Of a stretch of DNA of 47,182 bases, positions 1-47,182 are shown piece by piece. The notes below the pieces were generated by a model that made no database searches, had not been told where the DNA came from, and was given only the letters and a program-made list of their open reading frames with translations. The stretch lies in NCBI RefSeq assembly GCF_001854545.1, contig NZ_MLQN01000019.1:1-47182 (forward strand), written 5' to 3'. Position 1 is the stretch's first letter, and every line of letters begins with the position of its first letter. This stretch comes from Helicobacter sp. CLO-3 (GTDB taxonomy: Bacteria; Campylobacterota; Campylobacteria; Campylobacterales; Helicobacteraceae). A program made the position numbers and the translations under genes.

Positions 1-379
1 AAGATCCTCGCCGCACTAGAGAACTACTAAAACCACTAAGGCCCTATATGCAAAAAGTTCGCTTTACTACAAAGATTGGCTACTATACACCTTGGCTGTA
101 TAGGATTCTTAAAAAAATTAAGCGAAATTTTGTTTAAGAAACAAAAAATTAATAAAATTTTATAGATAATTTTAACAAAATATATTTTTATTCTCTGAAT
201 GCTTCAAGCTAACAATTTTACACTTTCGAACAAAAATTCGAAATAAGAGAAGTGCAAAATCGCTGTGTATAAATCGCAGAATCTAGCTAAAATACGATTT
301 TGTTTTGCCCATTTTATTTGCTAGATTTTGCAAATTGTTTGCGTAAAAAAATTATCTAAAAATCACCAAAAGGACACAT

Positions 380-1207
380 ATGCAAGCAGGGATTATAGGG
401 CTTGGGTTGATAGGCGGGAGTATGGGGCTGGCACTTCGCAAAAGCGAGGGCTTCACGCGCATCATCGGGCATGATGTCAATGCGCTTCACTGCCAGCAAG
501 CGCTACTACTTGGGCTAGTGGATGAGTGCGTGGATTTTGAGCAAATTTTGAAATGTGATGTGATATTTATCGCCACGCCGCTTGATGCGATAATCTCGAT
601 ACTTCAAAGCATCGATTCGCTGCCTTCAACCACTACTATCATCGATCTAGGCGGGGCGAAAGAGCAAATCATCCGCGCCGTGCCAGAGCAAATACGCAAA
701 AACTTCATCGCCGCCCATCCCATGAGCGGGACAGAAAACTATGGTCCAAATGCCGCGCTAGAGGGACTTTTTTATAATAAAATCGTGATTTTGGCAGATC
801 TAGAAAATAGCGGCGAGCTGCAAGTAGCACTAGCAAAGCAAATATTTAATGACATAGGCATGCGCATCATCAAAATGAGTGCCAAAGAGCATGATAGGCA
901 TGTGGCGTTTATCTCGCATCTGCCGCATGTGATTTCATTTGCGCTGGCAAACACGGTGCTTTCACAAGAAGAGCCGCAAAATATTTTGGCACTCATTGGC
1001 GGGGGCTTCAAGGATATGAGTCGCATCGCCAAAAGCTCGCCTATCATGTGGCGCGATGTGTTTGCGCAAAACAAGCAGAATCTGCTGGATTCTATCGAGT
1101 GCTTTGGCAAGGAGATGATATACGCGGAGACGCTTATCAAAGAGGAGCGCTGGGAGGATCTCATAGAGTGGATGAAGCGCGCAAATTCGCTGCATGAGTT
1201 TATGTAG
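380..1207 (+). CDS. tyrA: Prephenate dehydrogenase (TyrA family), NAD-binding
   Basis: N-terminal Rossmann GxGxxG (GLGLIGGSMGLAL) and a TyrA-type HPMSG motif (AAHPMSGTE). ATG at 380 follows a weak SD-like AAAAGGA. Length 275 aa fits monofunctional TyrA. Confidence 0.75.
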   Translation: MQAGIIGLGLIGGSMGLALRKSEGFTRIIGHDVNALHCQQALLLGLVDECVDFEQILKCDVIFIATPLDAIISILQSIDSLPSTTTIIDLGGAKEQIIRAVPEQIRKNFIAAHPMSGTENYGPNAALEGLFYNKIVILADLENSGELQVALAKQIFNDIGMRIIKMSAKEHDRHVAFISHLPHVISFALANTVLSQEEPQNILALIGGGFKDMSRIAKSSPIMWRDVFAQNKQNLLDSIECFGKEMIYAETLIKEERWEDLIEWMKRANSLHEFM

Positions 1208-1729
1208 ATTCTGTGTCTTGTGTGGATTTTGGGGTAAATTTTGGAGCGCAGAGTGGGTATCTGGTGCAAAGCAAACATGAAGTGCAATAGGTATTGAAGT
1301 AAAGCAGGCGCAGAATCTAGATTTTAGATTCTCGTTTTGCGGAGATAAAATAGCAAATCCAAGAAAGGCGGGGCTAAGAAAACCCCGCAAGCCCTAGCGC
1401 TTAACATTTATCCTAATTTTAAAGCCAAAAAGCTTGAAATTTAGATATAATGCAAACGCAAGGCTTTTGTTATGCTTCCTCATAACTCCGCCTTTACATT
1501 GGAATGCGCCCCAATATAAATTGGGGCGAGGTATTATACTGCTTTCACGCTTATATTGCGATTTATGCCACCGATTGCCACTCAAATAAACAAATTTCAA
1601 ATCCAAAATCCAGATTCTAATCAAACGCAAGATTAATGCCAAACAAGCGCCCTGCCCTGCTCTAGCTCTGCTTTGCAAAATTTCGCAAGATTCTCTAAAA
1701 TCCCGCAAATTTTCGCGCGCTATCTCACA

Positions 1730-2227
1730 CTATTTCCCGCCACTAGTATTCCCTAGAATCCTCGCATGCGTGATGGCAATAGCGATGGCATCGGTGATGT
1801 CTAGCGGTTTTATCTCTGCTTTGATGCCTAGAATCTGCTTCACCATAAACGCCACTTGATTTTTATCCGCCTTGCCATTGCCTGTGATTGCCTTTTTCAC
1901 TTGCAGCGGCGTGTATTCGGCGAAGTTGCCTATATCTTGCAGGATTTTTAGGCTGATAGCGCCACGCATTTGTGCTAGCTTCAGCACGCTTTTGGGATTA
2001 TAAGCATAGAAAATATCCTCCATCGCCACAGAATCTATTTTGTGCTCTTTTAGCACCAAATCTATGCCTTCGACAAATTCGAGAATCTGGCTTTGCAAAT
2101 CACGCTCTTTTATTTTGATAAACCCAGCTTCTATGAGCTTCAGCGCGCCAGCATTTGCACTCGTGCCACTAGAAATGACAGCATAGCCACAATTCCTGCT
2201 TCCCGGATCAATCCCAAGCACTATCAT
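1730..2227 (-). CDS. ruvC: Crossover junction endodeoxyribonuclease RuvC
   Basis: [19 protein letters not shown]-terminus (RNase H-like fold with catalytic Asp), length 165 aa, typical of RuvC. Confidence 0.9.
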
Positions 2228-2256
2228 AATTTCAAATCCTGTATATTTGTTTTATG

Positions 2257-2387
2257 TTTTTCACATATTGTTTTTGCTAGAATCCTGCGTTCTAAACGCG
2301 CTATTTTAGTGCATAAGCGCTATGAGATTCGTTAAATTTGCTAAATTATTCACGCAAATGATAAAAGTTATTCACATATTTTTCACT
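2257..2387 (+). promoter_or_regulatory. Cluster of four DnaA-box-like 9-mers upstream of dnaA: candidate oriC1 and dnaA promoter region
   Basis: TTTTTCACA at 2257-2265, TTATTCACG at 2346-2354, TTATTCACA at 2368-2376, TTTTTCACT at 2379-2387. All are in the same orientation in the ruvC-dnaA intergenic region. Each is 1-2 mismatches from the canonical TTATCCACA and close to Helicobacter-type T(T/C)ATTCACA boxes. Confidence 0.55.
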
Positions 2388-2464
2388 AGCTTAGCGCGCC
2401 AATGTGACAAACCAAAGCAAGACAAATTCAAAACACCAGCACAGCAAACTAGCAAGGAGAATCT

Positions 2465-3784
2465 ATGATTTGGGATGAAGTGCTTCAGCATATCAAAAAA
2501 GAAGTATCGCCTCAAGAATTTGATAAATATATTTCTTTGATGAAATACGATGAAAACGCCTCCAAAAGCAACCTTGCCGTATTTATCGTCCCAAACCCTT
2601 ACATAAAAACATGGATAGAAACCAGCTACGCCGAAAGCATCGCGCATATCTTTGAAATCATCAATAAAACCAAAACCGAGGTAAAAATCGAAGTCGCCAA
2701 AGAAAAACAAGGCAATAAAAGCCAAAAAGCCAAAAACCAGCGCATACAAGAACAGCATTTCCTAAACTCGCAACAAACCTTTGATAACTTCGTAGTAGGA
2801 AGCAGCAACGAGCACGCCTTCACCGTCGCCGAAAGCGCCGCCAAGCGCCAAGCCACCGCGTTTAACCCGCTGCTGATATACGGGCACACCGGACTTGGCA
2901 AAACGCACCTTTTATACGCGATAGGCAACTTTGCAATGGAACATCGCAAAAAAGTGATATACATAACCGCCGAAGAGTTTATGAATGAATACCACAAACA
3001 CCTAAAACAGCGCACTATGGATGCTTTTAGAGATGTGTATCGCAATTGTGATTATCTGCTTATTGATGATGTGCAGTTTCTAGGCGGGAAGAGCAACTTG
3101 CAAGAGGAGTTTTTCAACACTTTTGAGGCGCTGTATAAAAGCAAAAAACAAATCGTCATGACTTCTGATAAACTACCAAAGCAAATCCAAGGACTAGAGG
3201 AGCGGATAAGGTCGAGGTTTGAAGGCGGGATGATGATGGAAATCCAGCCCCCAGAGATAGAGACAAAGGTGCGCATCATCGAGCAAAAATGCCGCGACAA
3301 CCAAATAAATATGGATAAAGAAACCATAAACTTCCTAGCAGAAAACATAAATGAAAACATCCGCCAGATTGAGAGCGTAATACTCAAGCTAAACTTCCAG
3401 CACTCCATAACAAACCAGCCCATAAGCATATCTATGGCAAAAAATGTCCTAAAAGAAATCCAAAAAGAAGCCAATGAAGAAATCGGGCTAGAAAAAATCA
3501 TAAACGCCGTCGCTAAAGAATGCAATGTAAAACCAAGCGAAATCATCTCCAAATCGCGCACCTCGCGCATCGTGCAAGCAAGGCATCTAGTCATCTATCT
3601 CACAAGAACACTCGCTTCATCGATAGATTCTATGGGGATGCTCGCACAAAAGCTAAATATGAAAGACCACAGCGCGATTTCAAAGGCATTCACCCAAATC
3701 AGCAAAAAGATAGAAAGCGATGAGAATCTAAAACGACTCTCAAAAGAGCTAAAAAACAAAATACAAAACGAAAAAAGCCTATAA
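2465..3784 (+). CDS. dnaA: Chromosomal replication initiator protein DnaA
   Basis: AAA+ Walker A GHTGLGKTHLL, Walker B LLIDDVQFL, C-terminal DnaA-box-binding domain (IVQARHLVIYLTRTL). Strong SD AAGGAG before ATG at 2465. Confidence 0.95.
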   Translation: MIWDEVLQHIKKEVSPQEFDKYISLMKYDENASKSNLAVFIVPNPYIKTWIETSYAESIAHIFEIINKTKTEVKIEVAKEKQGNKSQKAKNQRIQEQHFLNSQQTFDNFVVGSSNEHAFTVAESAAKRQATAFNPLLIYGHTGLGKTHLLYAIGNFAMEHRKKVIYITAEEFMNEYHKHLKQRTMDAFRDVYRNCDYLLIDDVQFLGGKSNLQEEFFNTFEALYKSKKQIVMTSDKLPKQIQGLEERIRSRFEGGMMMEIQPPEIETKVRIIEQKCRDNQINMDKETINFLAENINENIRQIESVILKLNFQHSITNQPISISMAKNVLKEIQKEANEEIGLEKIINAVAKECNVKPSEIISKSRTSRIVQARHLVIYLTRTLASSIDSMGMLAQKLNMKDHSAISKAFTQISKKIESDENLKRLSKELKNKIQNEKSL

Positions 3785-3803
3785 TCTGCTATAATACGCG
3801 CGG

Positions 3804-3925
3804 TGAAATGTCGTGAAAAGTCAAAGACAAAAATATCACTTAGCAAATCTCGCAAAATAGGGCGCTAGGATATGTTTTTCACTTTTTCACGAAGACTACT
3901 AATACTTCTAATTTCATAATAAAAA
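3804..3925 (+). promoter_or_regulatory. Second DnaA-box cluster plus AT-rich tract between dnaA and dnaN: candidate oriC2 / DNA-unwinding region
   Basis: Inverted boxes GTGAAAT (3804-3810) and CGTGAAAAG (3812-3820). Direct TTTTTCAC at 3875-3882 and TTTTTCACG at 3883-3891. AT-rich run taatacttctaatttcataataaaaa follows at 3899-3925. Confidence 0.5.
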
Positions 3926-3934
3926 GGAGCAGCG

Positions 3935-5035
3935 ATGAAAATCACGCTAAACAAGACAAACTTCGAAATGATCCTAAACAACTTCCAATCATTTCTCGAC
4001 AAAAAAGACTCATCACAAATCACATCCCATATCTACCTAGAAACTATGGGTGATAAGCTACTTATGAAAGCGACAGATTATGAGATCTCTATCCAATCAA
4101 AGATTGATATCTTGCAAAACGCAGAGGATGGCATCGCTACGATAGAGGGCAAAAAAATACTTCCCATCATCAAACAACTAAAAGATGGCGAAGTCACACT
4201 AGAAACAAAAGACAGCCAAATACTTGTAAAACAAGGAAAGGCGAAGTTTAAGCTTTCTACATTTAACGCAGCAGAATTCAACAACGCCACAAAATTCCCA
4301 GAAATCAGCGAAAATGACACAAAGATAAATCTAGATTCTATCGATTTCATCAAATCAATCGAGAAAGTGGCAGTGGCAGCGGATTCTAGCGCGCACAAAA
4401 TAGATAATCATCGCATCGAGCTCACAGGGACACTTATCGATGTGAAAGATTATTATTGCAACTTTGTAGGCACAGATACTAGAAGACTAGCGATAATCCG
4501 CCAAAACACCCAATCTATCGGCACGCAACTTTCTATCATCATCCCCAAACGCGCGATTTTAGAGATAAAAAAGCTCTTTTCTGATGATTTTGAGATATTT
4601 TTCTCACAGACGATGCTTTTTGTGCGCTCGCAAAATTACGCGTTTTCTACCAAGCTCATAAATGGCAAATATCCAGACTATGAGAAAATCATCCCAAAAG
4701 ATTTCAAAATGCAGCTAAAACTGCCAAAAAGAGACATCGAAGAAGCGATAAACCTCATCAAATCATTATCAGTAAATGTCAAAATCACGCTAGATTCTAA
4801 TGGCTTGCTTTTTGAAGCGATGAGCTCTGAAGAGCTAGAATCTGCTAGCACGCAAATCGAGCTTCCACTAGAGATACCAGAGCCTATCACGCTTGGGATG
4901 AATGCGCAATATATCTTAGATTTCTTGCGATATATCAATGTGGCAGAGTTTGAGATTTTGATAAATGAAGCGAATATGCCTTTTATGCTTAGAGATGAAA
5001 ATTACTCTACTATCATTATGCCAGTGCTTTGCTAG
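3935..5035 (+). CDS. dnaN: DNA polymerase III beta sliding clamp
   Basis: 366 aa, three-domain beta clamp architecture, position immediately after dnaA, strong SD AAAGGAG before the ATG. Confidence 0.9.
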   Translation: MKITLNKTNFEMILNNFQSFLDKKDSSQITSHIYLETMGDKLLMKATDYEISIQSKIDILQNAEDGIATIEGKKILPIIKQLKDGEVTLETKDSQILVKQGKAKFKLSTFNAAEFNNATKFPEISENDTKINLDSIDFIKSIEKVAVAADSSAHKIDNHRIELTGTLIDVKDYYCNFVGTDTRRLAIIRQNTQSIGTQLSIIIPKRAILEIKKLFSDDFEIFFSQTMLFVRSQNYAFSTKLINGKYPDYEKIIPKDFKMQLKLPKRDIEEAINLIKSLSVNVKITLDSNGLLFEAMSSEELESASTQIELPLEIPEPITLGMNAQYILDFLRYINVAEFEILINEANMPFMLRDENYSTIIMPVLC

Positions 5036-5087
5036 GATCTAAAAGCTAGAATCTAGATTCTAGTAAGATTCTGCGCCACAAAGCTAA

Positions 5088-7460
<2,373 letters not shown>

Positions 7461-7668: not shown

Positions 7669-7929
7669 ATGTTTGATTTTTTTCGTAGAGAAAATGTGAC
7701 TATCGTTGATGGCGTAGAGATCGTCTCTAGGAGCATAGATTTTGGCTTTTTGGCGATTTTTGCGTTTTCATTTATGGTTGGGATTTTTATCTATTTTTTG
7801 CCTACTTTTATCGCTGTTATGCGAAATCACAAGGATAAATTACTAATTTTTATCATAAATATTAGCTTTGGCTGGAGCGTGCTTGGCTGGATTGTCGCGC
7901 TTGGCATTAGCTTTATGAAAAAAGATTAG
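7669..7929 (+). CDS. Small two-helix membrane protein, possibly superinfection-immunity (Imm_superinfect)-like
   Basis: 86 aa from the ATG at 7669 (the track begins at a TTG 3 nt upstream). Two hydrophobic helices and a C-terminal GWSVLGWIVALGISF motif that resembles the GWxGWIxAL signature I recall for the PF14373 family. Assignment is tentative. Confidence 0.4.
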   Translation: MFDFFRRENVTIVDGVEIVSRSIDFGFLAIFAFSFMVGIFIYFLPTFIAVMRNHKDKLLIFIINISFGWSVLGWIVALGISFMKKD

Positions 7930-8305
7930 ATTCTAGCTTTTATATTGCATCATCTTGAACCAGCATTCGAAATTCATCCAAAAACATCGCTTTAAACGCC
8001 AAAAATACTAGAATCTAACCCGCCAAACACCCCAAAACTCATCAAATAGCAAATCGTTGAAATAAACGCCATTCAAGCGCGTTTAACGCTACAAAACTTT
8101 TTGAGCTAATTAAACATAATCTGTGCGGTTATCAGCGATAATTAGCAAAAGTGCTATAAAACTTTTGAAATGCTTGAAATGCCTTGAAACTTCTTAAATC
8201 CCATAAAATCATAGCTAGAATGCAGAATCTAGATTCTAGGCTCTAGCATCCTTAGCACTAAAGATTTTTTATAGCTTCCTAGTTTTTCTATCTAGAATCT
8301 AGATT

Positions 8306-9067
8306 CTACTTCACATCTTTTAGCACAAGCTCCACCGGGCAATGATCGCTGCCATGTATTTCTGGGTGGATTCCAGCGCTTTGGAGTTTGGATTCTAGCG
8401 CGCGCGAGCAGAGAAAATAATCAATCCGCCACCCCGTGTTATTCGCCCTCGCCTTTCCCATATAGCTCCACCAAGTATAAGCGCCTTCTTTGTCCGGGTA
8501 AAAATGCCTAAAAGTATCGATAAACCCAGAATCCAAAAGCGCGCTCATCTTCTCGCGCTCCTCATCTGTAAAACCTGCGTTGCGGCGATTTGTTTTTGGA
8601 TTTTTGAGATCGATTTCTTTATGCGCGACATTGAGATCGCCACACACGATGACACCTTTATGTTTTTCTAGATTTTTCAAAAACGCACGAAAATCATCCT
8701 CCCACTCCATGCGATATTCCAAGCGTTCCAGCTCGCGCTTGCTATTTGGCGTATAAACATTAACAAGATAAAAGTCATTATATTCTGCGGTGATGATGCG
8801 CCCTTCTTTGTCATGATGCGTGATCCCCATGTCATAGGCGACATTTAAAGGCGCTTTTTTGCTAAAAATCGCCACGCCAGAATAGCCCTTTTTTTCCGCA
8901 CTATTCCAGTATTCCTCATAGTTTGGGAAGTCAAAAGTTGCTTGTTCGCGTAGCATTTTAGATTCTTGTATGCAAAACACATCCGCATCAACAGCGTTAA
9001 AAAACTCCATAAACCCCTTATTCATGCATGCGCGCAATCCATTGACATTCCAAGAAATAAGCTTCAT
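8306..9067 (-). CDS. xthA: Exodeoxyribonuclease III (AP endonuclease)
   Basis: MKLISWNVNGLRA N-terminus, EEP-family catalytic motifs (CIQESK, GDLNVAHKEIDL, SDHCPV). 253 aa. Confidence 0.9.
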   Translation of the reverse strand: MKLISWNVNGLRACMNKGFMEFFNAVDADVFCIQESKMLREQATFDFPNYEEYWNSAEKKGYSGVAIFSKKAPLNVAYDMGITHHDKEGRIITAEYNDFYLVNVYTPNSKRELERLEYRMEWEDDFRAFLKNLEKHKGVIVCGDLNVAHKEIDLKNPKTNRRNAGFTDEEREKMSALLDSGFIDTFRHFYPDKEGAYTWWSYMGKARANNTGWRIDYFLCSRALESKLQSAGIHPEIHGSDHCPVELVLKDVK

Positions 9068-9209: not shown

Positions 9210-10598
9210 CTATTTTTGCTCTTTTTTCTGGCTTATTTTATCTAGCAAGTTTTTGCCTAGCTCACTTTGTGCGAGCCCTTCAAGCATCGCGCCTAGTTGC
9301 GTGCCACCTTTTGCAGAGAAAAATTCACTTACACTTTTTAGCCCTTCATTGACATTGCCATTGCTCGCATTTGCGATGATTTTGATATCTGCTTTATCAA
9401 GCGCTTTTGCTTGCTCGATGCCTATGGCTTGAGAGGCTTCGATTTGGCGGATTGAGATGAGGTAGTTTTGATAGCCTTGATTTTCGCCTATTTCTTGTGC
9501 GAGTGAGATTTGCGCTTCGATTGGCGCCATTTGCATGAGCTTTTCACTTTGGGCTTTTGCAGCACCTTCTAGCTCGATACCTTTTGATTCTTTGCTTTTC
9601 ATTTCTAGCAGGGCTTCTGCCTCGCGCTTTTTAGATTCTAGCAGGGCTTCAGCTTTTAAGATATCTTTTTGCTTATCACCTTCTGCGTTGATGATGGCGG
9701 TTTGCTTGATTTCTTCAGCCTTTACGACATTGACATCTTTTGTGATTTCTGCGCGCTTGATGTCAGCGACTTTGATGACTTCCATTTCTTTTTCTTTGGT
9801 GACTTTTTCTTGCTCTTTGACAAGCTGTGCGGCTTTTTGCGCGGAGATATCGACTTCTCTTTGAGATTCTACGGTTTTTAGTCCCACGACTTGTTTTGCG
9901 ATTTGCTCTTGGATCTGCGTGGCTTGTTCGGCGTTGATTTCAGCGATTTCAGCATTTTTGATATTTTCTGCCACTTCGACGCGACTTTGCATTTCGATAA
10001 GAGATTTTTTCTTTTCCATGATATTGCGGATGACATTAGAATCTTGGCTATCTCTTATATCCATAAGCTCCAAATTTTTAACCGTTTCAACGCCCCAGCT
10101 TGCGAGCTGTTCGCGCACTTCTTTGGTAAAGCTATCGCCAAAAGTGCTTCTTGAGTGCATGATGTCTTCAATCTCATGAGAAGAAAGTATCGTCCTAACA
10201 GAGCCTTGAATAATCGCGCGCAACTGCTCGATAAGCTCATCAAAGCTGCTTACTCTTTGGGCTGCGACATTAGAATCTTTGATACGAAAAAAGGCAGTAA
10301 TATCCACGATAAAAGGCACCCTGCCCTTATCATAGGCTTCATAGCCATTGAGATTTATGTCAAACACAGAAACAGGCAAAACGATTTTTGTCACCCCAAA
10401 AATAGGCACCCAAGAGGGCCACTCATAGTAAGTGTTGCCATTTCCAGTGTCTTTGCCAAAAGAAGTGGTGTTTTTGGCAGATTGGATGATATGCACTTCA
10501 TTTGTCGCCACCACGCGGCGGAAAAGCAGCGCCACCAAAACAATCACCACAAGCAGCGCCAGCAAAGCGCCAACCAGAATCGAAACAAAACTTATCAT
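9210..10598 (-). CDS. Flotillin-like SPFH/band-7 membrane protein
   Basis: N-terminal TM helix (ISFVSILVGALLALLVVIVLVALL), SPFH domain, long EA-rich coiled coil (AEIAEINAEQATQIQEQIAK; EAEALLEMKSKE). The likely ATG start at 10598 (AAGGA 8 nt upstream) is preferred over the TTG at 10604. Confidence 0.8.
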   Translation of the reverse strand: MISFVSILVGALLALLVVIVLVALLFRRVVATNEVHIIQSAKNTTSFGKDTGNGNTYYEWPSWVPIFGVTKIVLPVSVFDINLNGYEAYDKGRVPFIVDITAFFRIKDSNVAAQRVSSFDELIEQLRAIIQGSVRTILSSHEIEDIMHSRSTFGDSFTKEVREQLASWGVETVKNLELMDIRDSQDSNVIRNIMEKKKSLIEMQSRVEVAENIKNAEIAEINAEQATQIQEQIAKQVVGLKTVESQREVDISAQKAAQLVKEQEKVTKEKEMEVIKVADIKRAEITKDVNVVKAEEIKQTAIINAEGDKQKDILKAEALLESKKREAEALLEMKSKESKGIELEGAAKAQSEKLMQMAPIEAQISLAQEIGENQGYQNYLISIRQIEASQAIGIEQAKALDKADIKIIANASNGNVNEGLKSVSEFFSAKGGTQLGAMLEGLAQSELGKNLLDKISQKKEQK

Positions 10599-11692: not shown

Positions 11693-12383
11693 TTTTATCA
11701 CAAGATTTAATAAAAATTTAGAAAAAATAGATTCCCTCGCGCTGTCGTTTTATGAAAAAGATTTGCTTTTTAGCGCGTATTACAATCACCTAAACCATCT
11801 TGAGATAAGCCCGCAGGCAAGGGAGCTTATGAAGGCGCTTGGCATAAGTTTTAGGCATAAAAATATTATTTTTGATTCTGAAATATTAGAATCTAAAACG
11901 CTAGAATCTAACCAAAGCAAAGTGCAAAATAATCAAGCCAAAGCGCAAAAAGAGCCCAAAGAACGCGCGCTAAGCCTTTTTGAATGCGAGAATAAAGCAA
12001 AGGCTTTGCAGACTCAAAGCGAGCATTTTTTGGAGCAAATTAAGCTAAACCTTGAAAAAACGCTTCATCCACAAGAGCTCGCGTTTTTAAAAATTAGCGC
12101 AATTTATCAAAAACTAGAGCAAGAAAAAGCGCGCTTGCAAGAGGCTTTGAGCGAGCTTACTGCAAACTTTTTGCAAGGATTTGAAAACCTTGAAGCACCT
12201 TTGCAGACTGAAATCACACAAAAGGCCAATGCGCTCACGCGCGCGCTAGAAAAGCAAAAAAATCTCTCCGCAAAACTCTGCTTTAAAATCCTAGAAATAA
12301 AAAACGCCCAGACAAAAAATACCACTTCACTTGAAACGCTTATAAACGAGCTAGACGCGTATTTACAAAATATAAAACATTAA
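11685..12383 (+). CDS. Hypothetical coiled-coil protein (TTG start overlapping the upstream stop)
   Basis: 232-aa ORF whose TTG at 11685 overlaps the TGA of the preceding gene (coupling). K/E/Q-rich coiled-coil composition. No recognisable motif. Confidence 0.45.
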   Translation: MADFITRFNKNLEKIDSLALSFYEKDLLFSAYYNHLNHLEISPQARELMKALGISFRHKNIIFDSEILESKTLESNQSKVQNNQAKAQKEPKERALSLFECENKAKALQTQSEHFLEQIKLNLEKTLHPQELAFLKISAIYQKLEQEKARLQEALSELTANFLQGFENLEAPLQTEITQKANALTRALEKQKNLSAKLCFKILEIKNAQTKNTTSLETLINELDAYLQNIKH

Positions 12384-15589: not shown

Positions 15590-15852
15590 TTTTTTCCTTA
15601 GATTCTGGGTTTGGATTCTGACTGTGGCTGGGCGCTTAGAATCTAGCTGGGATTAGCGCGCTTTGATTTTGCTTTTAGATTCTGGTTTGGATTTTACTTC
15701 TAGATTCTAGCGCCAGAATCTAAATCGCGCCTGTTGTTTAAATCAAAGCGCCCAAATCAAGCCACGCCAAAAAAAGCGCACCCAAATACACGCACCGAAT
15801 CGCGCCAAATACGCCTTTTAAGCCACAATTGCGCGCCCTTAAGCCACAAAAT

Positions 15853-19421: not shown

Positions 19422-19697
19422 AAATACAACCTTTGTTTTGTAAATCTATTTTAAGATTTTGATATCTGAATATGGCAAATAATTTAAGCTTGCCAAATAA
19501 ATATCGCGTATTGTATCGAGTTTTTCATTAATTATTTGTAAATAATAAGTATGATTTCATAATTTTAAAGCCCAGCGAGAATCCGCGAGAGAATCTGCGC
19601 GAAAATCTATGCCAAAATTTACGCGAGAATCCGCACTTGGTAAGAATCTATAAAATCTAGCGGCAAATCATAGAGCGACAGCAAAGGAGCGGCATCA

Positions 19698-22291: not shown

Positions 22292-22683
22292 GAATGCTTT
22301 GGGCGATGCGCTTGAAATATTTGCGGTGGCTGAAAATGTCTAAGTTTGGTTAGATGTGTTTAAGGCGGCTAAAAAATATTTGTGGTGCATTTGGATTTTG
22401 GTGCGATATTCTGATGTAATGTTTCACATGAAACTATGATTAGATTTGTGTCAGATTTTATGCTAGATTCTGCGCTTGATTTGGTATCGGATTCTGGTGT
22501 TTGGATTTTGTGACAGTAAATATGAAGCCAGAATCTAGCGCAGGATTTATACCAGCGGATTTATGCCAAATGGTAGAATCTAGATTCTGCCATCAAGCGC
22601 ACAAAAGCTAGAATCCAAAAGCCAAACAAAGTCACAAACAAAACCATAAACAAACCACAAACCAAATCACAAAAGGAGAGAAA

Positions 22684-32019: not shown

Positions 32020-32132
32020 GATTCCAAACTATGCAAAACCATGCAAAGCACCCAGAATCTAGATTCTGGTAATTTGACAGCTTAAAGCTAGCGCAAAATC
32101 CAGCCAAACCAAAGAAGCAAAAAGGAGCAAAC

Positions 32133-33200
32133 ATGATAACCAAATATCCAAAAATCCGCCCCAGCACAAAAGGCACAAAAAACGCAAAAAGTGCAAAAGG
32201 CGTAAAAAGCGTAAAATGTTTCACAAAGCACATATTAATGTCGCAAATATCGCGCATATTAACATCTTGCGCGCTTAGCATCGCGATATGCTTCCTCGCC
32301 ACAAGCGCACTAGAATCCACAGAATTAGGCCAGCGCCCACAAGCCACAAACACCACAAACGCTGCAAACATCATCACAAGCACCACAAACACCACAAGTG
32401 CAAATAGCACCATACAACCCATAAGCGCAAGCATCACCCAGCAAGCTCCCAAAACACCACAGCGATACACCACCGATCTAGAGGAAGTGGGCTTACACAT
32501 GCAGTTTGTATGGCTGAAGTCAAACCTGCCTTATGCAGAGCATGACAATGACACTTTTGCGCACTTTCCTGCATGGCATTTCCCTATAATGCAGCCTTAT
32601 AACACCAGCTTTTTGACGCGCCAGCTTCTTCCCAAGCCTGAATATGTGGTCAATATGCAGTGGGCGGATGGCAGCTATGATGATAGCATGCCTTTTTGGC
32701 TTTGGCTGTATTGGGGGATGTCGGATAGTATGATATTGGATATGGATGATAAAAGCCTGTGTTTTTCTGCCAAAGGTGTCGGCTGTCTGCTGCCCTATGC
32801 GCCAAAATTTAAAAAAGACGCCGCGCTTTACGCCCTGCCAAAAGTGGATTCTGATACGCTGCATAAGCTATCAAGCGACGATATCGTGTTTCCTGTGGCG
32901 CTTAGCAGTGATGGCAAGTTTTATCAAGTGATAGTTTTCCCGCAGATGCAGGGCATCACCAAACAAAAAACCGCAGAGGATGCGTATGAGTATATGGATT
33001 CTCTTGTGGAGCAGGGGAGGGTGCCGCTCAATGGATTTGTCAAAAAATCTGTGATAAAAAAGCTAAATAAAGGCAACCCTCTGACAAAAATCGATCCAAA
33101 CTACTCCGATGCGCCGGTATTTTTCACGCTGCCTTTTGATATAGATTTCAAATATATGGATGAGGAGAAGCGAGCGCATTTCAAAGCGGTGGATGAGTAG
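32133..33200 (+). CDS. Hypothetical membrane-anchored or secreted protein with a T/N-rich sequon-dense segment
   Basis: Strong SD AAAGGAG 6 nt before the ATG. Lys-rich N-region, then a hydrophobic segment (ILTSCALSIAICFLATSA), then ATNTTNAANIITSTTNTTSANSTIQ (three NX(S/T) sequons in 25 aa), then a ~250-aa W/Y/D-rich globular region. No recognisable family. Confidence 0.6.
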   Translation: MITKYPKIRPSTKGTKNAKSAKGVKSVKCFTKHILMSQISRILTSCALSIAICFLATSALESTELGQRPQATNTTNAANIITSTTNTTSANSTIQPISASITQQAPKTPQRYTTDLEEVGLHMQFVWLKSNLPYAEHDNDTFAHFPAWHFPIMQPYNTSFLTRQLLPKPEYVVNMQWADGSYDDSMPFWLWLYWGMSDSMILDMDDKSLCFSAKGVGCLLPYAPKFKKDAALYALPKVDSDTLHKLSSDDIVFPVALSSDGKFYQVIVFPQMQGITKQKTAEDAYEYMDSLVEQGRVPLNGFVKKSVIKKLNKGNPLTKIDPNYSDAPVFFTLPFDIDFKYMDEEKRAHFKAVDE

Positions 33201-33308
33201 GCGCGGATGAATGGGCGGCAAGTGCAGGGCAAAAGCATGAAATGCTAAGGTAGGGCGCGTTTATCGCGCTTTGGCTTTATCTAGTGCATTTAGAAAAAGG
33301 TAGCCAAA

Positions 33309-34436
33309 ATGACAAAAACAGCACAAACAGCACAAACAGCACAAACAGCACAAATACCAGCAGTGGTAAAATATGTAAAACACCAGCTAGGCGCATATTT
33401 TGTGCGCTTTATGCGTTTTATGCGCTTTGCTTGGCTAAGTGCCTTGCTGTTTGCAAGTGCGGCTAGCGCTTCAGATTTTGTCTATGGGCGCGCGATTATC
33501 GCTAGCGATAAGGTATTTTTCCTCGCAGATCGCGGCGCAAGGTCTGGCAACACGCCACCGCCAAACTACATCATGCCAAATCAAGTATTTGCATTTAGCC
33601 ATTTTGACAGAAGTGGCAGAAACGACAAATCTTCGCTTTGCGGGGACTCTAGCCAAAAAATCGCAGATGATAGCGGTATAGTGCGCTGCATCACCCCAAA
33701 AAGCACCAATATAGTCATAAACCCCGCTTTGCATGTTAACATCATGCGACTAAAAATAAGCGCGCAAGAATCATCACTAGATAAATTGTCACCGGATGAA
33801 TCGTCACCAGCAGAATCTAGTCTAGGCAAATCTAGCCCCGCAAAATCCAGCGCGCGCCAATACAAAGAAATAAGCAAGCGCTATGGCTTTGGGCGCAATG
33901 AGCGGAATGGTATCGTGCAGTGGGGCTGGACGACTTCTGATATACCTGATGATGTGCTGGGATTTCAAGAGGTGGTGCTGGCGCATAGTGATAGCGCGCT
34001 GAAGCTTTATAAAGAGCCTTTGCTAGAATCTGAAATCATCCTGCAAGGCGTGCATGCGAGCTCTAGCGCGATACTGCCGCGCACAGCAGAATCTAAAAGA
34101 GCGCGCGATGATATAGCGAGTGGCAAAAAGATAGTGCCAGATGCTACGACTGCGAATATGGCGCTGCTGGCAATCCCAGAGGTGTTGTTTGAAAGCTATT
34201 TGGGCGATCGTATATTTTTGGTAGGGTATGTGGAGGGTGAAAAAAATAGCGCTTCGCCAAACAAAGCAGAATCCAAATCAAGGCCTCGAGCAGAATCCAA
34301 GCAAACAGAATCCCAAGCGGAATCTAAAAATAAGGCAGAATCCAAAAAAGGCAGATTCTACCAAGCGATAGTGGTGCGCGATGAGTCGGTGTATTTTTGG
34401 GATATTTTGCAGAAAATGAATTACAATCCACGATAA
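33309..34436 (+). CDS. Hypothetical secreted protein with an N-terminal (TAQ)4 repeat and Ser/Glu/Lys-rich low-complexity runs
   Basis: SD AAAAAGG. Hydrophobic signal-like segment FAWLSALLFASAASASD after an extended N-region. A 9-nt repeat x4 at 33321-33356. AESK-type C-terminal repeats. Confidence 0.55.
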   Translation: MTKTAQTAQTAQTAQIPAVVKYVKHQLGAYFVRFMRFMRFAWLSALLFASAASASDFVYGRAIIASDKVFFLADRGARSGNTPPPNYIMPNQVFAFSHFDRSGRNDKSSLCGDSSQKIADDSGIVRCITPKSTNIVINPALHVNIMRLKISAQESSLDKLSPDESSPAESSLGKSSPAKSSARQYKEISKRYGFGRNERNGIVQWGWTTSDIPDDVLGFQEVVLAHSDSALKLYKEPLLESEIILQGVHASSSAILPRTAESKRARDDIASGKKIVPDATTANMALLAIPEVLFESYLGDRIFLVGYVEGEKNSASPNKAESKSRPRAESKQTESQAESKNKAESKKGRFYQAIVVRDESVYFWDILQKMNYNPR

Positions 34437-35980
34437 ATAAGCAAAATAGCTCCAAAAACTTACCAAAAGTAGAAGGCGCTACGCTTGCTTTATCAGATAC
34501 GCCAGCAAATCTTGCAAAAGCTAACCTCACGCTTTTTGACAATCAATACTCTGGAATAAAACAGCGCGCATACATAAGCCATGCGCTAGAGAATCTAGAT
34601 AGCATAAAAGTAGAGTTCAACTTAGATGATGAGAGGATCTATCTAGCAGATTCTAGCGTTTTGCCGCTGCTTCCCATAAGTCAAGAGATAGATTATTATC
34701 TAAGCGCGGAGGATCGTGCCAACCTTGCGACTATCGCGCGCAGCAGAGGCATGCTAAAGATCCCAGCGACGCTAAATATCACGCTAGATTATAGCTTGGG
34801 CGAGCATGTGGCGCTGGAGCCTGAGGTAAAGCTAGTCTCTCTAAGTAGCAAAGGGTCAAAATCTACTAACGCAGCAGCGCAAATCAGGGGATTGGCACCA
34901 AATAATGCAGCACCAAATAATGCAGGATTTATACCACAAAGCACCGATACCCAAACGCACAAAAAACTATACGAGCGCTCATGTATGAGCGAGAATCTAG
35001 TGCGTAAAGGGTTTTTGGAGATTTATTCTATTGATAAAGAAGAGATTGATAAAAACGACATCGCCAAAGATTCTGCAGATTCTACAGGCTCTATAGATTC
35101 TGCGCAAGGCGATTCTGACAAAGCCAAAAACATGCTCTACACACTCTATATCAGCAAAATAGACGCAGCAAATAGCATACTGCTAACAAGGCCTGCAGAA
35201 TCCGCAGCGCAAAACACCCTCAAAAACAAGGAGTTCGCATCCAAAGATTTTATCCAAATTTGCTATGGCTTTGCGAGCGATAAAGATGGGATTAAGTGCA
35301 TGCCTTTTGGCTTCGTGCGCGCGGATGATATCATCTCTTGCAGGGACTATGATAGCAAAAATGCGCCAGATTATGCGCTGGCAAAAGCGGTGCTAAAAGC
35401 CATTAGCGAGCTAGAATCTAAGCCGATAGATTCTACTAGCTTTGCGCTTTATAAAAGCGGCGCAGAAAATAGCGGGCAAGCGCAAACGCAGACACTAATA
35501 GGGCAGATTACCAAAGTAAAAAGCCTAAAAGAAGGCATAGAGCTAGCAAAAAGCTATAAAATGGATGATATATCACTGCTAGAGCAGATACCAAAAGACA
35601 GCACCACGCCAAATGCTAGCAAGGCAAAAGCGCGCCAAACGCCACAAGCGCCTTATGGCAGCGATAGAAGAGTGCGCTACAATCGCGGGAGAGATTATGT
35701 AGAGCCAGAAGCGGAGGCGCATTTCATTTTCCTAAACGAACCAAAAGCGCTAGAAAAGCTAGCCAGCAAATCACAGCTCAAATCCCAGCCACTAGGCGAC
35801 ACGACTTTGCTTTATACAAAGCGTCCTTTTGGTGGCGAAAAAGACATCCGCGCCCTGCTAAAAAAGCCCAAGCAATCAGACTTCACCCAAGAGATTTTGG
35901 CGATATATCATAGAAATATCTATATTTTTAGCGAGGATAGTGTGATATATTTGGATGGGCGCAAGCTGCTTGATAGATGA
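34397..35980 (+). CDS. Hypothetical 527-aa protein (TTG start, 40-nt overlap with the upstream gene)
   Basis: Long ORF with protein-like composition. No signal peptide or known motif seen. The start is uncertain: TTG at 34397, and the first in-frame ATG is far downstream. Could be translationally coupled or a frameshifted continuation. Confidence 0.45.
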   Translation: MGYFAENELQSTINKQNSSKNLPKVEGATLALSDTPANLAKANLTLFDNQYSGIKQRAYISHALENLDSIKVEFNLDDERIYLADSSVLPLLPISQEIDYYLSAEDRANLATIARSRGMLKIPATLNITLDYSLGEHVALEPEVKLVSLSSKGSKSTNAAAQIRGLAPNNAAPNNAGFIPQSTDTQTHKKLYERSCMSENLVRKGFLEIYSIDKEEIDKNDIAKDSADSTGSIDSAQGDSDKAKNMLYTLYISKIDAANSILLTRPAESAAQNTLKNKEFASKDFIQICYGFASDKDGIKCMPFGFVRADDIISCRDYDSKNAPDYALAKAVLKAISELESKPIDSTSFALYKSGAENSGQAQTQTLIGQITKVKSLKEGIELAKSYKMDDISLLEQIPKDSTTPNASKAKARQTPQAPYGSDRRVRYNRGRDYVEPEAEAHFIFLNEPKALEKLASKSQLKSQPLGDTTLLYTKRPFGGEKDIRALLKKPKQSDFTQEILAIYHRNIYIFSEDSVIYLDGRKLLDR

Positions 35981-36321
35981 GCTAAATAAGCTAAATAAGA
36001 TTTAAGCTAGGTGGATTCTGGCTTTTGGCGCTTGCATTTTGTGGTGTGGCTTTTTGCGCGCGTGCGAGGGCGAGAAGGCAAAAAGGCGGGCGCGGGTGTG
36101 TGGATATAGATTCTAGCTTTTGGCGCATATCTTGCGCGCTTTGTTTGAGTTTGGCACTTTTGGCAAATCTAGAATCTAAAAGGCAAAATCCAAAAAGCAG
36201 AATCTAAACCCAGAATCCAGAATGAAAAACCAAGAATCCAAAACCAAAAAGCCCAAAAAACCTACAATCTAAACTCAAAAACCCAAATCCACCCCTCCAA
36301 ACATCTATCATGATTTCCCGG

Positions 36322-38358: not shown

Positions 38359-39426
38359 ATGGAAAAGGCAAATAATCGCGACAATTTCGGCAATCCCGAT
38401 AACTCTAATAACCCCAATAATCGCAGAAACTTTATCAAAGCCGGCGTGGGTGCTTGCGCGGTGCTGGGATTTGGCGGGGCATTGTCGAGCTTGGGCGCAA
38501 AAGGCGCGGATTCTACTAAAACAGATTCTGGCAAAGCGGATTCTGGCAAATCTGGCAAAATAGATTCTAGCAAACTAGATTCTAGTAAAGCGGATTCCAC
38601 CAGCACTTCAGAATCTAGCGCAAAGCAAGAATCCATCACGCTAAATAATGGCGTGCAAATGCCACTCATCGGACTTGGGACTTACGCACTCACCGGCGCG
38701 CAAGGTGTCAGCGTAGTCAAAGAAGCGGCAAAGCTTGGCTATCGCCTCTTTGACACCGCGCAAATGTATAACAACGAGCGCGAGGTGGCGCAGGGTTTGC
38801 GTGAAAGTGGCGTGGCGCGTGAAAAGCTTTTTATCATGACAAAACTTTCAAGCGATATGAGTTATGAAGAGACGAAGCGCCATATCGATAGGACTTTGGC
38901 GGAGATGAAGCTGGAGTATTTTGACTTGCTTTTGTTGCATCGCGATTTTTCATCAAGAGATGCGATGTATAGGGCGATGGAGGAATTTTACGCGCAAGGC
39001 AAGCTAAAAGCGCTTGGCATCTCAAATTTTCGAGAAAAGGCGTATTTGGACTTTATCAAAACCTGCAAGATAATGCCTGCGGTCAATCAAATGGAGACGC
39101 ATATTTTCTTGCAGCACAGCGCGTATCAAAAGTTTATGCGTGAAAATGGTGGGTGCGCGCTGCAGTCGTGGAGTCCTTTTGATTCTGGGCGCAAGGGGTT
39201 TTTCACAAATGAAATTCTGATGAAAATCGCCAAAAAGCATAATAAAAGTGTCGCGCAAGTGGCTTTGCGCTGGCTTACACAGCGCGGTGTGGTGGCGATA
39301 CCAAAAACCTCTAAAATAGAGCGGCTGAAAGAGAATCTAAATATCTTTGATTTTGTGCTTGATGAATCCGACCTCGCACAAATTGCCAAACTAGACACCG
39401 GCAAAAGTTCTGTCGGCTGGTGGTGA
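38359..39426 (+). CDS. Tat-exported aldo/keto reductase
   Basis: Twin-arginine signal (NRRNFIKAGVGACAVLGFGGALSSLGA). AKR motifs (GLGTYAL, LFDTAQMYNNE, LLLHRDF, ISNF). A Ser/Asp/Lys-rich low-complexity insertion (DSGKADSGKSGKIDSSKLDSSKADSTSTSESS) sits just after the signal peptide. Confidence 0.85.
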   Translation: MEKANNRDNFGNPDNSNNPNNRRNFIKAGVGACAVLGFGGALSSLGAKGADSTKTDSGKADSGKSGKIDSSKLDSSKADSTSTSESSAKQESITLNNGVQMPLIGLGTYALTGAQGVSVVKEAAKLGYRLFDTAQMYNNEREVAQGLRESGVAREKLFIMTKLSSDMSYEETKRHIDRTLAEMKLEYFDLLLLHRDFSSRDAMYRAMEEFYAQGKLKALGISNFREKAYLDFIKTCKIMPAVNQMETHIFLQHSAYQKFMRENGGCALQSWSPFDSGRKGFFTNEILMKIAKKHNKSVAQVALRWLTQRGVVAIPKTSKIERLKENLNIFDFVLDESDLAQIAKLDTGKSSVGWW

Positions 39427-39487
39427 GTAGATAAAAATTTTGTGCGATAGTGCATGCATCAAAATCTAAGAAATCCAAGGCAAAAGC

Positions 39488-43803: not shown

Positions 43804-43821
43804 ATTAAGCAAAGGATTAGC

Positions 43822-44925: not shown

Positions 44926-44928
44926 GCT

Positions 44929-45897
44929 TTGCAAAACTCGCGACAAGAAGCAGGGCAAAGCGCGCAAGCGGATTTGAAAAAAGGCGCGCAGCAAAACGCG
45001 CTACATGGCACACTACAAAAAAGCGCGCGACAAGATAGCGGCGCGCAGCAAGAAGTCCCAAAGCTAGATTGGCAAAAATCTAGCCTCATCCCAGCTATCG
45101 TGCAAGATGCCACGAGCAAAGAAGTGCTAATGCTCGCTTTTATGGATAAAGAAGCCTTCGCATTGACGCTGCAAACAAGGCAGATGCATTATTTCTCCCG
45201 CTCCAAAGGCAGAATCTGGAAAAAAGGCGAAACCAGCGGACACATACAGCGCGTGAAATCGGCGTTTGTGGATTGCGATAATGATGCACTATTATTTTTG
45301 GTAGAGCAGGTGGGTGCGGCGTGTCACACAGGAAACAAAAGCTGCTTTTTTCAAAGTATCGGCGAAGTGGATTCTGGTGTGAATTTGGGCGCGAAAACCG
45401 CTGGCGCAGAATCTGCTAGCCAAAAATCTAAAATAGTAGAATCTAAAAAGGCAGAATCTGAAGGCGCAGAATCCAAAAACTACGCGACACATTTAGATTC
45501 TGCTAATTCTGTGGATTCTACCACTTTAGCCACCCCCGTACCAAAACCAAACTCCGCCTTCGCATACGACATTTACGGCGTCATCGACACGCTTTACCAC
45601 ACGCTTTTGGAGCGCAAATTTGCCAAAGGCGACACCTCCTACACCGCATCGCTTTATGAAAAAGGCGTCAATACCTTTGGCAAAAAAATCATCGAAGAAG
45701 CCGGCGAAGTCGTGCTCGCGCTAAAAGACGCCGACCGGGCGCAAATCGTGTATGAATGCGCGGATTTGGTATATCATGTGATGGTGGGGCTGGCGTATAA
45801 CAACATCCACCCAGAGCAGATTTCCCAAGAGCTTGCGCGGCGTTTTGGGCTTAGCGGCATCGATGAAAAGGCGCAGCGCAAGGCAAATAAAGCATAA
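44929..45897 (+). CDS. hisIE: Bifunctional phosphoribosyl-AMP cyclohydrolase / phosphoribosyl-ATP pyrophosphatase HisIE with an internal low-complexity linker
   Basis: HisI motifs (LIPAIVQD, CDNDALLFLVEQVGAACHTGNKSCFF). HisE motifs (LYHTLLERK ... EEAGEVVLA ... ECADLVYHVMV). The domains are joined by an AESASQKSKIVESKKAESEGAESKN segment. TTG start at 44929, with a ~45-aa N-terminal extension. Confidence 0.85.
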   Translation: MQNSRQEAGQSAQADLKKGAQQNALHGTLQKSARQDSGAQQEVPKLDWQKSSLIPAIVQDATSKEVLMLAFMDKEAFALTLQTRQMHYFSRSKGRIWKKGETSGHIQRVKSAFVDCDNDALLFLVEQVGAACHTGNKSCFFQSIGEVDSGVNLGAKTAGAESASQKSKIVESKKAESEGAESKNYATHLDSANSVDSTTLATPVPKPNSAFAYDIYGVIDTLYHTLLERKFAKGDTSYTASLYEKGVNTFGKKIIEEAGEVVLALKDADRAQIVYECADLVYHVMVGLAYNNIHPEQISQELARRFGLSGIDEKAQRKANKA

Positions 45898-46131
45898 AAG
45901 CAAAATAGCCAAATAGCGCGATGCAAGGCGATTCAAGCTTTAAACCACAGCCAAAGCTTCGCCCAAGCGCGCTTTGATTTAAGCTTATTAGCCTAGCAAA
46001 CGATATAATTAGCACCAAAACCCAAAACGACGACCAAAAAATATCACAAAACAGCACAAAATATCGCCAACCATGCGCTGGCATCGAGATAGCTAACTCA
46101 AAAAGTGATAAAATCAAAACAAGGGGCTTGC

Positions 46132-46665
46132 ATGAAAGAGATTTTGACACTAAAATCACTCATCACCACCGCAAGCGCGCATGTCGCCCTGCCAGAAAGC
46201 GCGGTATTTATGCTATTTTTCTTGGTGTTTGTGTTTGTATTTTTTTTCTCGCTCATTTTTTGGCGCTATCGCGGCGTTTTCGCGCTTTGCTTTGTGCTTC
46301 AGGGGGCGATTTTGTGCGCGACGCCCTTTGGCGTGGCGTTTGTGATGCGCCACTTCCTCTATCCCATCGAGGTAAATTACGCGCGCTTTGCGCCATTTGT
46401 CTATACGAGCGGTTTTAGCTTTGATGTCGAGATAAAAAACAGAGGCAAACTGCCTATCAAAGAATGCATGCTAACCATCACCTCCACGCACGAAAACCCC
46501 GCGCAAAGCAGGCTAGTCGCCCTGCGCGACACGCTACTCCCGCAAGCCGCATATACCAAAAGCGTAAAGCTAGATTTAAAGCCACGAGAATCCTATCGCT
46601 GGGAAGGCATTATTGACAGCTACTCATACGGCGACAACTACAAAAGCACCCTCGATTGCCATTGA
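46132..46665 (+). CDS. Hypothetical membrane protein
   Basis: ATG at 46132 with SD AAGGGG (the track starts at an upstream GTG). Two or three TM helices (FMLFFLVFVFVFFFSLIFW; LCFVLQGAILCATPFGVAFV) then a ~100-aa soluble domain. Contains a T8 run at 46240-46247. Confidence 0.55.
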   Translation: MKEILTLKSLITTASAHVALPESAVFMLFFLVFVFVFFFSLIFWRYRGVFALCFVLQGAILCATPFGVAFVMRHFLYPIEVNYARFAPFVYTSGFSFDVEIKNRGKLPIKECMLTITSTHENPAQSRLVALRDTLLPQAAYTKSVKLDLKPRESYRWEGIIDSYSYGDNYKSTLDCH

Positions 46666-46764
46666 TTGGGCTTTTCTAGAATCTAATTTCCTGCCATCAT
46701 CAAAGAAGCTGACGCTTTGCTAAAGAAACTTACTTTATTTATTTTTGCCACTACCTGCGCTTTC

Positions 46765-46879
46765 CGTCATTGCGAGACTTGCGTTAGCAAGGCGAAGCAA
46801 TCCAGAGGATAGCCAAAATCACAAAATCATAATTTTTCTAAATAGATTGCTTCAGATTCTGCGAATCCTCGCAATGACG
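46765..46879. repeat. About 115-bp imperfect inverted-repeat element downstream of the last gene (two nested arm pairs)
   Basis: cgtcattgcgag (46765-46776) pairs with ctcgcaatgacg (46868-46879). cgaagcaatc (46793-46802) pairs with gattgcttc (46845-46853). Internal small hairpin cttgcg-tta-gcaag. Confidence 0.5.
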
Positions 46880-47182
46880 ATTAAAAGCATCTACTAAACC
46901 ACGCCTAGAATCCGCTCACCAAAAACTCCAAAATCACTCAAAATCTCGTCTAGATTCTAGACCAGAACCTGACCCAAAATCTAGCCCCAAATCTAATCCA
47001 AAATCCGCTCAAATTTTGATCCAAAAATCTCTCAAAATCCAATCCCAGAATCTAGCTCCAAATCTACCCCCAAAATCCACCTACAAAACTGCCCCAGATT
47101 CCTATCATTTTTACTTCATTATGATAATACATTTTATTTGTGTTTCTTTTATTCACATTTGATTTACTTTTTTCGCCACTTT

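Follow-up and report, generated by a model that had tools for sequence, protein, structure and literature searches.

What makes a single short word recur about once every 190 bp along a bacterial chromosome, inside genes as well as between them? The question arises in the replication-origin region of Helicobacter sp. CLO-3, of which a stretch of 47,182 nt (contig NZ_MLQN01000019.1, hereafter the window) is crowded with the heptamer AGAATCT/AGATTCT and carries five copies of a palindromic 14-mer, AGAATCTAGATTCT. Expected counts were taken from dinucleotide shuffles of the window (100 for the 14-mer), a Markov-3 model and a synonymous-codon shuffle, and relatives were sampled as gyrB +/- 10 kb from 80 genomes (loci of ~20 kb) together with loci reached through protein look-ups. 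We found that sequence of any kind is driven towards AGAATCY by a directional force whose target is the DNA and neither protein nor RNA. Point substitutions and small tandem duplications create new sites in place, and these last where protein function allows; relatives keep the density while single sites come and go, and the deeper lineages each have a variant of their own. As to the source of the force, a self-DNA tag is the reading that we tentatively prefer.

Abundance, polarity and shape of the word

The overrepresentation proposed from the sequence was borne out against every background. The 14-mer occurred five times, compared with 0.00 in the shuffles (an expectation far below 1 had been claimed), and AGAATCT/AGATTCT occurred 159 times, compared with 8.3 +/- 2.8 in the shuffles and 23 under the Markov-3 model. 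Over the whole window (1-47182) there were 248 AGAATC/GATTCT sites (5.3 per kb; 31.2 +/- 5.5 expected), 235 of which are AGAATCY, an 18.8-fold excess over the 12.5 expected, and the most frequent 9- to 14-mers of the window all derive from this word. Coding DNA had 4.4 sites per kb and intergenic DNA 10-11; when each spacer was shuffled separately, the 65 AGAATC sites in 5.9 kb of intergenic sequence stood 21-fold above expectation (3.1 +/- 1.9). About 72% of the sites nevertheless lie in genes, as single copies in either orientation. The densest long gene is a 942-aa open reading frame (ORF), in which exactly 27 sites were counted, close to the ~27 half-sites estimated before; the label GT41 then given to this ORF found no support in Pfam or NCBIfam. 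It is the first of four consecutive ORFs in 29191-35980 (942, 355, 375 and 527 aa) without a match in either database.

The window runs from prephenate dehydrogenase and ruvC (minus strand) through dnaA, dnaN and gyrB to ~35 housekeeping genes, with one tRNA-Phe. Clusters of DnaA-box-like sequences (TTATTCACA, TTTTTCAC) flank dnaA at 2228-2464 and 3785-3934 and look like a two-part oriC, as in H. pylori; nearly the whole window would therefore lie on one replichore. AGAATCY fell 125 times on the plus strand and 110 times on the minus strand (p = 0.36), without replication-strand bias. This distribution bears on a Chi-like role, in which the AddAB helicase-nuclease would stop degrading at the word and start recombination, so that the word would mark self DNA. 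Chi words and KOPS (FtsK-orienting polar sequences) are likewise short, lineage-specific and overrepresented, and are read by DNA-processing motors; the Chi of Bacillus subtilis is a very frequent 5-mer, and we know of no Chi established for Helicobacter AddAB, both of which speak for such a role. However, Chi words are co-oriented with replication, which AGAATCY is not, and known Chi words are enriched far less than 19-fold. We therefore consider a Chi-like signal improbable, and the numbers 125 and 110 led us to reject a polar word of the Chi/KOPS type.

AGAATC is preceded by C or T and followed by T (64%) or C (31%) and then by A (68%). Because AGAATCC was enriched 13.8-fold and its mirror variant GGAATCT merely 2-fold, the enriched unit is an oriented, asymmetric AGAATCY(A), which looks palindromic only where Y is T. 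A palindromic unit of the type of HIP1 (highly iterated palindrome 1) is ruled out by the same two figures. The 14-mer consists of two AGAATCTA sites set head to head with the central TA common to both, and the reverse arrangement, GATTCTAGAATC, had no occurrence in the window. Thus, the earlier picture of a palindromic 7-mer was half right: AGAATCT is indeed enriched, but the motif is asymmetric and, among the species sampled, the 14-mer is confined to this one. It was found in none of 18 related Helicobacteraceae loci (L006-L023), nor in the loci of H. mustelae, H. fennelliae or the 85% relative. Viral contigs scanned for the 14-mer gave 120 single matches, which is the chance level, and the top word of the densest contigs was not AGAATC.

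Apart from AGAATCY, the tetranucleotide CTAG, usually rare in bacteria, was enriched in the window (319 vs 125 expected), largely because it forms part of the motif's TCTAG flank. Other words are avoided: ACGT (1 vs 66 expected), GTAC (4 vs 43), GAATTC (3 vs 20) and GATC (82 vs 164), which presumably reflects restriction avoidance. A restriction target under selection, one of the roles proposed for the word, does not agree with its counts, since such targets are avoided and AGAATCY is enriched; the words truly avoided here are ACGT, GTAC and GAATTC.

The five 14-mers were all found where they had been reported, at 5048, 8224, 8294, 22575 and 32054. Four are intergenic, as stated, and the one at 8294 reaches 2 nt into the stop codon of an exonuclease gene. 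These and the other individual sites, clusters and arrays are as follows.

5048-5061: 14-mer AGAATCTAGATTCT, 13 nt past the dnaN stop and ahead of gyrB, with a third GATTCT at 5067; the stem reaches 8 bp (z = -2.3).
8224-8237: 14-mer AGAATCTAGATTCT between the convergent Imm_superinfect-like and exonuclease genes (z = -0.8).
8294-8307: 14-mer AGAATCTAGATTCT, overlapping by 2 nt the stop codon of the exonuclease gene (8306-9067, minus strand; z = -0.4).
22575-22588: 14-mer AGAATCTAGATTCT in the rlmN-queH spacer; flanking bases lengthen the stem to 10 bp (z = -2.3).
32054-32067: 14-mer AGAATCTAGATTCT, 35 nt past the stop of the 942-aa ORF (z = -1.7).
1312-1332: spaced inverted pair AGAATCTAGATTTTAGATTCT between convergent genes (z = -2.9).
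15600-15721: six intergenic sites, clustered between the genes for SIS-CBS and RNase J.
19575-19631, plus strand: degenerate tandem array of 4.8 units (GCGAGAATCTAC) upstream of a hisF-like gene.
24094-24310: intergenic cluster downstream of queH, with six GATTCT, two AGAATC and one more GATTCT.
29191-32019, plus strand: the 2.8-kb, 942-aa ORF with no family assigned, 27 sites (9.5 per kb).
38506-38597, plus strand: in-gene array with a 15-nt period, in which GATTCT encodes the Asp-Ser of a DS-x3 pentapeptide repeat in the N-terminal extension of an aldo-keto reductase.
45425-45479, plus strand: in-gene array with a 15-nt period at the point where HisI and HisE join in HisIE, with Glu-Ser encoded by AGAATC.
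46973-47077, plus strand: degenerate array of 8.8 units (CCCAAAATCTAG), made of the relaxed form AAAATCT.

The 15-nt-period arrays thus encode DS-x3 or ES-x3 pentapeptides, and those in spacers are degenerate, with periods of 9-14 nt. The position of the five 14-mers and of several spaced inverted pairs near gene 3' ends would suit terminators or RNA-processing hairpins, or else a small mobile element resembling repetitive extragenic palindromic (REP) sequences or miniature inverted-repeat transposable elements (MITEs). Flanking bases lengthen the stem in three of the five 14-mers and in the pair at 1312 (z = -1.7 to -2.9), which also speaks for this explanation. On the other hand, the hairpins are weak, with A/U-rich stems and no U tract, and shuffled sequence folds as well as two of the 14-mers do; some three quarters of all sites are single copies within genes, on either strand. 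A bidirectional termination or processing role, as originally suggested, is therefore hardly the cause of the enrichment. A mobile element fares no better, with no longer conserved repeat unit in the window, repeat families that have only the short word in common, tRNA-Phe as the sole Rfam match on the window, and no 14-mer in the 18 related loci. We regard the whole group of explanations as very improbable. Two definitions do not apply: the 14-mer hairpins lack the G+C-rich stem and U tract of an intrinsic terminator, and the sites, with only a short word in common and 72% of them in genes, do not form an extragenic, conserved, imperfectly palindromic unit of at least 20 nt of the REP/MITE kind. 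The further suggestion of a selfish simple repeat failed in the same way, given that there is no longer unit and that aligned orthologues show the sites to have originated by substitution in place.

Several other features of the spacers were recorded. In 24440-24600, 36200-36290 and 46973-47095 there are A/C-rich degenerate tandem arrays (AAACCCCACCCCAA, AAAACCAAAAACCC, CCCAAAATCTAG); such arrays lie mostly on the upstream side of genes, and the sequence on the downstream sides is rich in G and T. A short ORF for a hydrophobic peptide, MEPLEIFLLVFLLAVLIGGVSAYVFFINDKNDKRG (22677-22790), lies downstream of the 22575 palindrome in the rlmN-queH spacer. A copy of the motif with T in front of it includes TAGAAT, which is close to the consensus -10 hexamer and on which several promoter-scan matches rely (e.g. 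1614-1642, 4812-4841, 10013-10042, 11878-11907 and 17990-18017); the word may therefore give rise to promoters that are spurious or antisense. Directly after gyrB (7669-7929) lies the gene for a small Imm_superinfect-family membrane protein, as it does in H. mustelae, H. fennelliae and others (5715-5957 in locus L206, 12322-12573 in L207 and 12348-12596 in L208), so that the pairing with gyrB is conserved without an obvious rationale.

Coding DNA and the reshaping of proteins

Could the excess be an artefact of composition, of codon usage or of a Glu-Ser/Asp-Ser dipeptide bias? The original prediction had itself raised an A+T-rich codon bias for these dipeptides, and the frames in which the word reads as Glu-Ser (xxA-GAA-TCY) or Asp-Ser (GAT-TCT) do hold 72% of the coding sites. 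However, a shuffle of synonymous codons that kept the proteins and the overall codon usage yielded 45 +/- 6 coding sites compared with 178 observed, all six classes of frame and orientation lay 2-10-fold above that shuffle, and the most enriched compartment is intergenic DNA (65 vs 3.1). The codon preceding GAA-TCY ended in A in 68 of 72 cases (94%; background 26%), and an Ala at that position was encoded by GCA in 17 of 19 cases, compared with 25% overall. Moreover, Campylobacter orthologues with identical peptides have no sites. We give an artefact of this kind almost no credence.

The proteins themselves carry the imprint. GAA-TCT was found 44 times (12 expected) and GAT-TCT 58 times (18 expected), and the dipeptides ES and DS were inflated 1.5- and 1.8-fold. 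Together with the data on preceding codons, these counts indicate that the constraint spans codon boundaries and has altered proteins. Sites accumulate wherever the protein is unconstrained, and their density follows protein constraint: MreB, FabZ and DnaA had 0-1.5 sites per kb, proteins of unassigned family 6-10 per kb, and low-complexity extensions and linkers ~7-24 per kb. The same gradient was found within single proteins, between the N-terminal extension and the catalytic domain of the aldo-keto reductase (22.7 vs 2.6 per kb), between the N-terminal extension and the rest of RNase J (10.7 vs 1.2) and between the C-terminal extension and the rest of QueH (6.6 vs 0); the inter-domain linker of HisIE (aa 177-217) had ~24 per kb.

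Such low-complexity regions occur in several housekeeping enzymes of the window, and most of them are motif-rich. RNase J (15853-18219) has a motif-rich N-terminal extension of 250 aa, rich in GRDN/NRES; QueH (22794-24080) has a C-terminal one of 250 aa; the aldo-keto reductase (38359-39426) combines a signal resembling the twin-arginine (Tat) type with a DS-rich linker; and HisIE (44929-45897) belongs to the same group. The 170-aa C-terminal extension of KsgA (18216-19421) is not enriched in the motif.

Lineage variants and turnover of sites

The first 17.5 kb of the window is 100% identical to FZRC01000044.1 (assembly GCA_900199605.1), and GyrB comparison places H. fennelliae (78% identity) closest among named relatives. 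Loci of enterohepatic Helicobacter carry the AGAATCT word at 2.3-4.4 AGAATC per kb; the carriers include H. magdeburgensis, H. labetoulli, H. fennelliae, H. sp. TUL, MIT 00-7814 and several metagenome-assembled genomes (MAGs). Other lineages have other words: the top word of Wolinella is GGAATCG (9.6-fold), that of one Helicobacteraceae MAG CGGATCT(A) (45-fold) and that of another CGAATCT(A) (8.2-fold), all dispersed and equal between strands, and the lineage variants are mutually exclusive. AGAATCY was absent from the loci of C. concisus and related Campylobacter (0 vs ~7 expected), and no comparable word was detected in the sampled loci of H. mustelae, Sulfurospirillum and Hydrogenimonas. 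Phage KHP30 of H. pylori, used as a weak stand-in for that lineage, had 9 sites in 26 kb and was not enriched. Poly-C/poly-G runs (CCCCCCCC), likely phase-variation tracts, were seen 10-13 times per 22 kb in the Helicobacteraceae loci L011 and L023.

Turnover could be followed in aligned genes. A codon alignment of gyrB showed ~7 sites per species, part of them common and part lineage-specific, with none in Campylobacter. Where GyrB residues are invariant (GDSAG, DKILK, EENPN), the motif was made by synonymous choice; where they vary, amino acids have changed, with YIEAN becoming YIESN independently in three lineages, a convergent change, and KD(T/V/A/N)K becoming KDSK in many species. Of the 36 window sites in ten orthologous genes, 14 (39%) were identical in the closest relative (84% GyrB identity), compared with 14.7% of frame-matched hexamers (p = 3e-4), and in distant species retention fell to 10-19%, against a background of 12-13%. 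The GyrB substitutions and this pattern of retention therefore indicate a persistent, directional force at the DNA level with turnover of sites.

These results bear on a serious rival to the self-DNA tag, namely that the word is a selected site for an abundant chromosomal protein (nucleoid-associated protein, condensin loader or global regulator) needed every few hundred bases. Intergenic density is highest, the half-symmetric site AGA-W-TCT would suit a dimeric reader, and retention exceeds background in the closest relative. The sites in spacers also show a mild orientation bias (p = 0.026), with GATTCT tending to be sense-oriented downstream of genes and AGAATC upstream. However, site positions turn over among species, and local density follows protein constraint instead of a regular spacing. 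Nor do we know of a nucleoid protein that drives an exact word to ~19-fold in coding DNA or causes convergent amino-acid change. On this evidence a chromosomal protein is an unlikely source.

A second serious rival, also unlikely though less so, is that repair or gene conversion is biased in the absence of DNA uptake, an idea put forward for HIP1. An activity specific to the lineage and directed at GAWTC, be it that of a methyltransferase, a nicking enzyme or a mismatch-processing system, would turn near-cognates into the word, which would then be a functionless by-product. Several counts fit: the transversion neighbours of the word are for the most part reduced to 0.25-0.5x, which looks as though the word had absorbed them; GASTC is depleted in the window and GAWTC enriched; and the core kept by the lineage variants is GAWTC or GATC, each a target class of adenine methyltransferases present in this phylum. 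GAWTC is a subset of the GANTC target of adenine methylation of the CcrM/HinfI class, and H. pylori and Campylobacter have enzymes of the GANTC family, whose specificity can narrow to GAWTC (PMC8919816). Competence would not be needed, in line with the reported absence of comB in H. hepaticus. Against this explanation, the logic of very-short-patch repair does not transfer, because N6-adenine methylation creates no deamination mismatch; documented methylation of GANTC/GAWTC goes with depletion of the motif, whereas GAWTC is enriched here and only GASTC depleted; and the sequence covered, the window and the ~20-kb gyrB loci, yielded no such enzyme pair. As a separate observation, GAWTC was nearly missing from the C. 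concisus loci (3-13 sites per 22 kb).

A possible self-DNA word and its counterparts

AGAATCY resembles the lineage-specific iterated words known elsewhere, that is, the DNA uptake sequences (DUS) of Neisseriaceae, the uptake signal sequences (USS) of Pasteurellaceae and HIP1 of cyanobacteria, and by analogy with them it may be a self-DNA tag spread by recombination-coupled drive, an account that we hold tentatively. We favour it because, among known phenomena, only DUS/USS and HIP1 combine the features of AGAATCY: an exact short word in thousands of copies, no strand polarity, an intergenic excess with inverted pairs, frame bias, inflated peptides, a preference for positions free of constraint, origin by substitution and lineage variants.

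The likeness to DUS/USS in sequence anatomy is detailed. These words, present in thousands of copies, are short, exact and equal between strands, denser outside genes and found as inverted pairs after genes; they show frame bias and inflated peptides, lie in poorly conserved genes and positions, originate by substitution and form lineage 'dialects'. Findlay and Redfield described the same coding signatures for USS and DUS (PMC2817400). HIP1 (GCGATCGC) has a comparable density in coding and non-coding DNA and contains a methyltransferase target, and in Synechococcus 7002 methylated HIP1 sites raise transformation up to 100-fold; it differs in being a perfect palindrome and G+C-rich, whereas AGAATCY is asymmetric, A+T-rich and in an unrelated phylum. 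A system closer in descent is that of C. jejuni, of the sister family in the same phylum, which imports only DNA that CtsM has methylated at RA(m6A)TTY (PMC10046745). GAATCY and RAATTY differ at one position. RAATTY was depleted in the window (85 vs 154 expected, 0.6x), so the window word is not RAATTY, and its enrichment in Campylobacter is far weaker than that of AGAATCY here, at 1.8-2.6x in the C. concisus, C. gastrosuis and Campylobacter MAG loci (L036, L056, L059) and merely 1.1x in that of Campylobacter sp. MIT 97-5078 (L024).

If the word is a self-DNA tag, the force would stem from an activity, particular to the lineage, that recognises DNA while it is exchanged or repaired by recombination. 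Word-bearing DNA would be preferentially taken up, kept or copied, and molecular drive would thereby spread the word, which would end up marking self DNA. GAWTC, replaced by GATC in one variant, is a core of a kind that N6-adenine methyltransferases are known to target, and the word may therefore be read in methylated form, which would parallel the reading of RA(m6A)TTY by C. jejuni. The 14-mers would be two sites packed head to head, and the weak hairpins at gene 3' ends at most a secondary use. A more specific proposal is possible, though we find it doubtful: a family of self-DNA words in Helicobacteraceae, with a GAWTC/GATC core and lineage-specific flanks (AGAATCY, GGAATCG, CGGATCTA, CGAATCTA), probably read N6-methylated by the uptake or recombination machinery, would represent a third independent origin of uptake sequences and the counterpart of CtsM/RAATTY. 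Among the five roles originally listed, uptake-like self-recognition is the one that the anatomy of the word fits best; uptake itself is suggested by analogy.

Several observations weigh against a self-DNA tag. At ~7 nt, AGAATCY is shorter than DUS or USS (9-12 nt) and, at ~5 per kb compared with ~1, five times denser; its spacing is clustered and not even (coefficient of variation 1.26), and its single-mismatch neighbours lie mostly at or below expectation instead of being mildly enriched, with AGAGTCT and AGACTCT depleted and AAAATCT alone clearly raised (3.4x). Frequent recombination is not evident, since contigs of the same species are 99.97-100% identical and five H. fennelliae strains 99.7-99.9% identical; in these five, 2 of 62 variable columns fell in motifs compared with 1.4 expected, numbers too small for power. 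The related loci sampled contain no islands in which a depletion in recently acquired DNA might show, and have no motif-free stretch longer than 1.4 kb. The enterohepatic H. hepaticus, which lies outside our motif counts, is reported to lack the comB competence locus (PMC3895553). Finally, methylated GANTC and GAWTC are underrepresented in Alphaproteobacteria (PMC8919816), so methylation alone does not yield enrichment.

In the literature on Helicobacter and Wolinella we found no description of AGAATCY, although our coverage was incomplete and it may have been noticed earlier, and two surveys of abundant bacterial oligonucleotides do not mention it. Natural transformation with recognition of self DNA by its sequence has been established, to our knowledge, in no more than two bacterial families, to which the methyl mark of C. 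jejuni can be added, and how uptake words originate and change specificity is still debated. Mutually exclusive variants across one family, beside a sister family with a proven methyl-dependent uptake filter, offer a natural series for weighing drive against selection. If the word or its methylation gates the entry of DNA, adding it to constructs could ease the genetics of enterohepatic Helicobacter and Wolinella. AGAATCY is in addition a sharp taxonomic signature for metagenome binning. Whatever the mechanism, the word measurably reshapes the proteins of this organism, which gain additional Glu-Ser and Asp-Ser and, in linkers, pentapeptide repeats.

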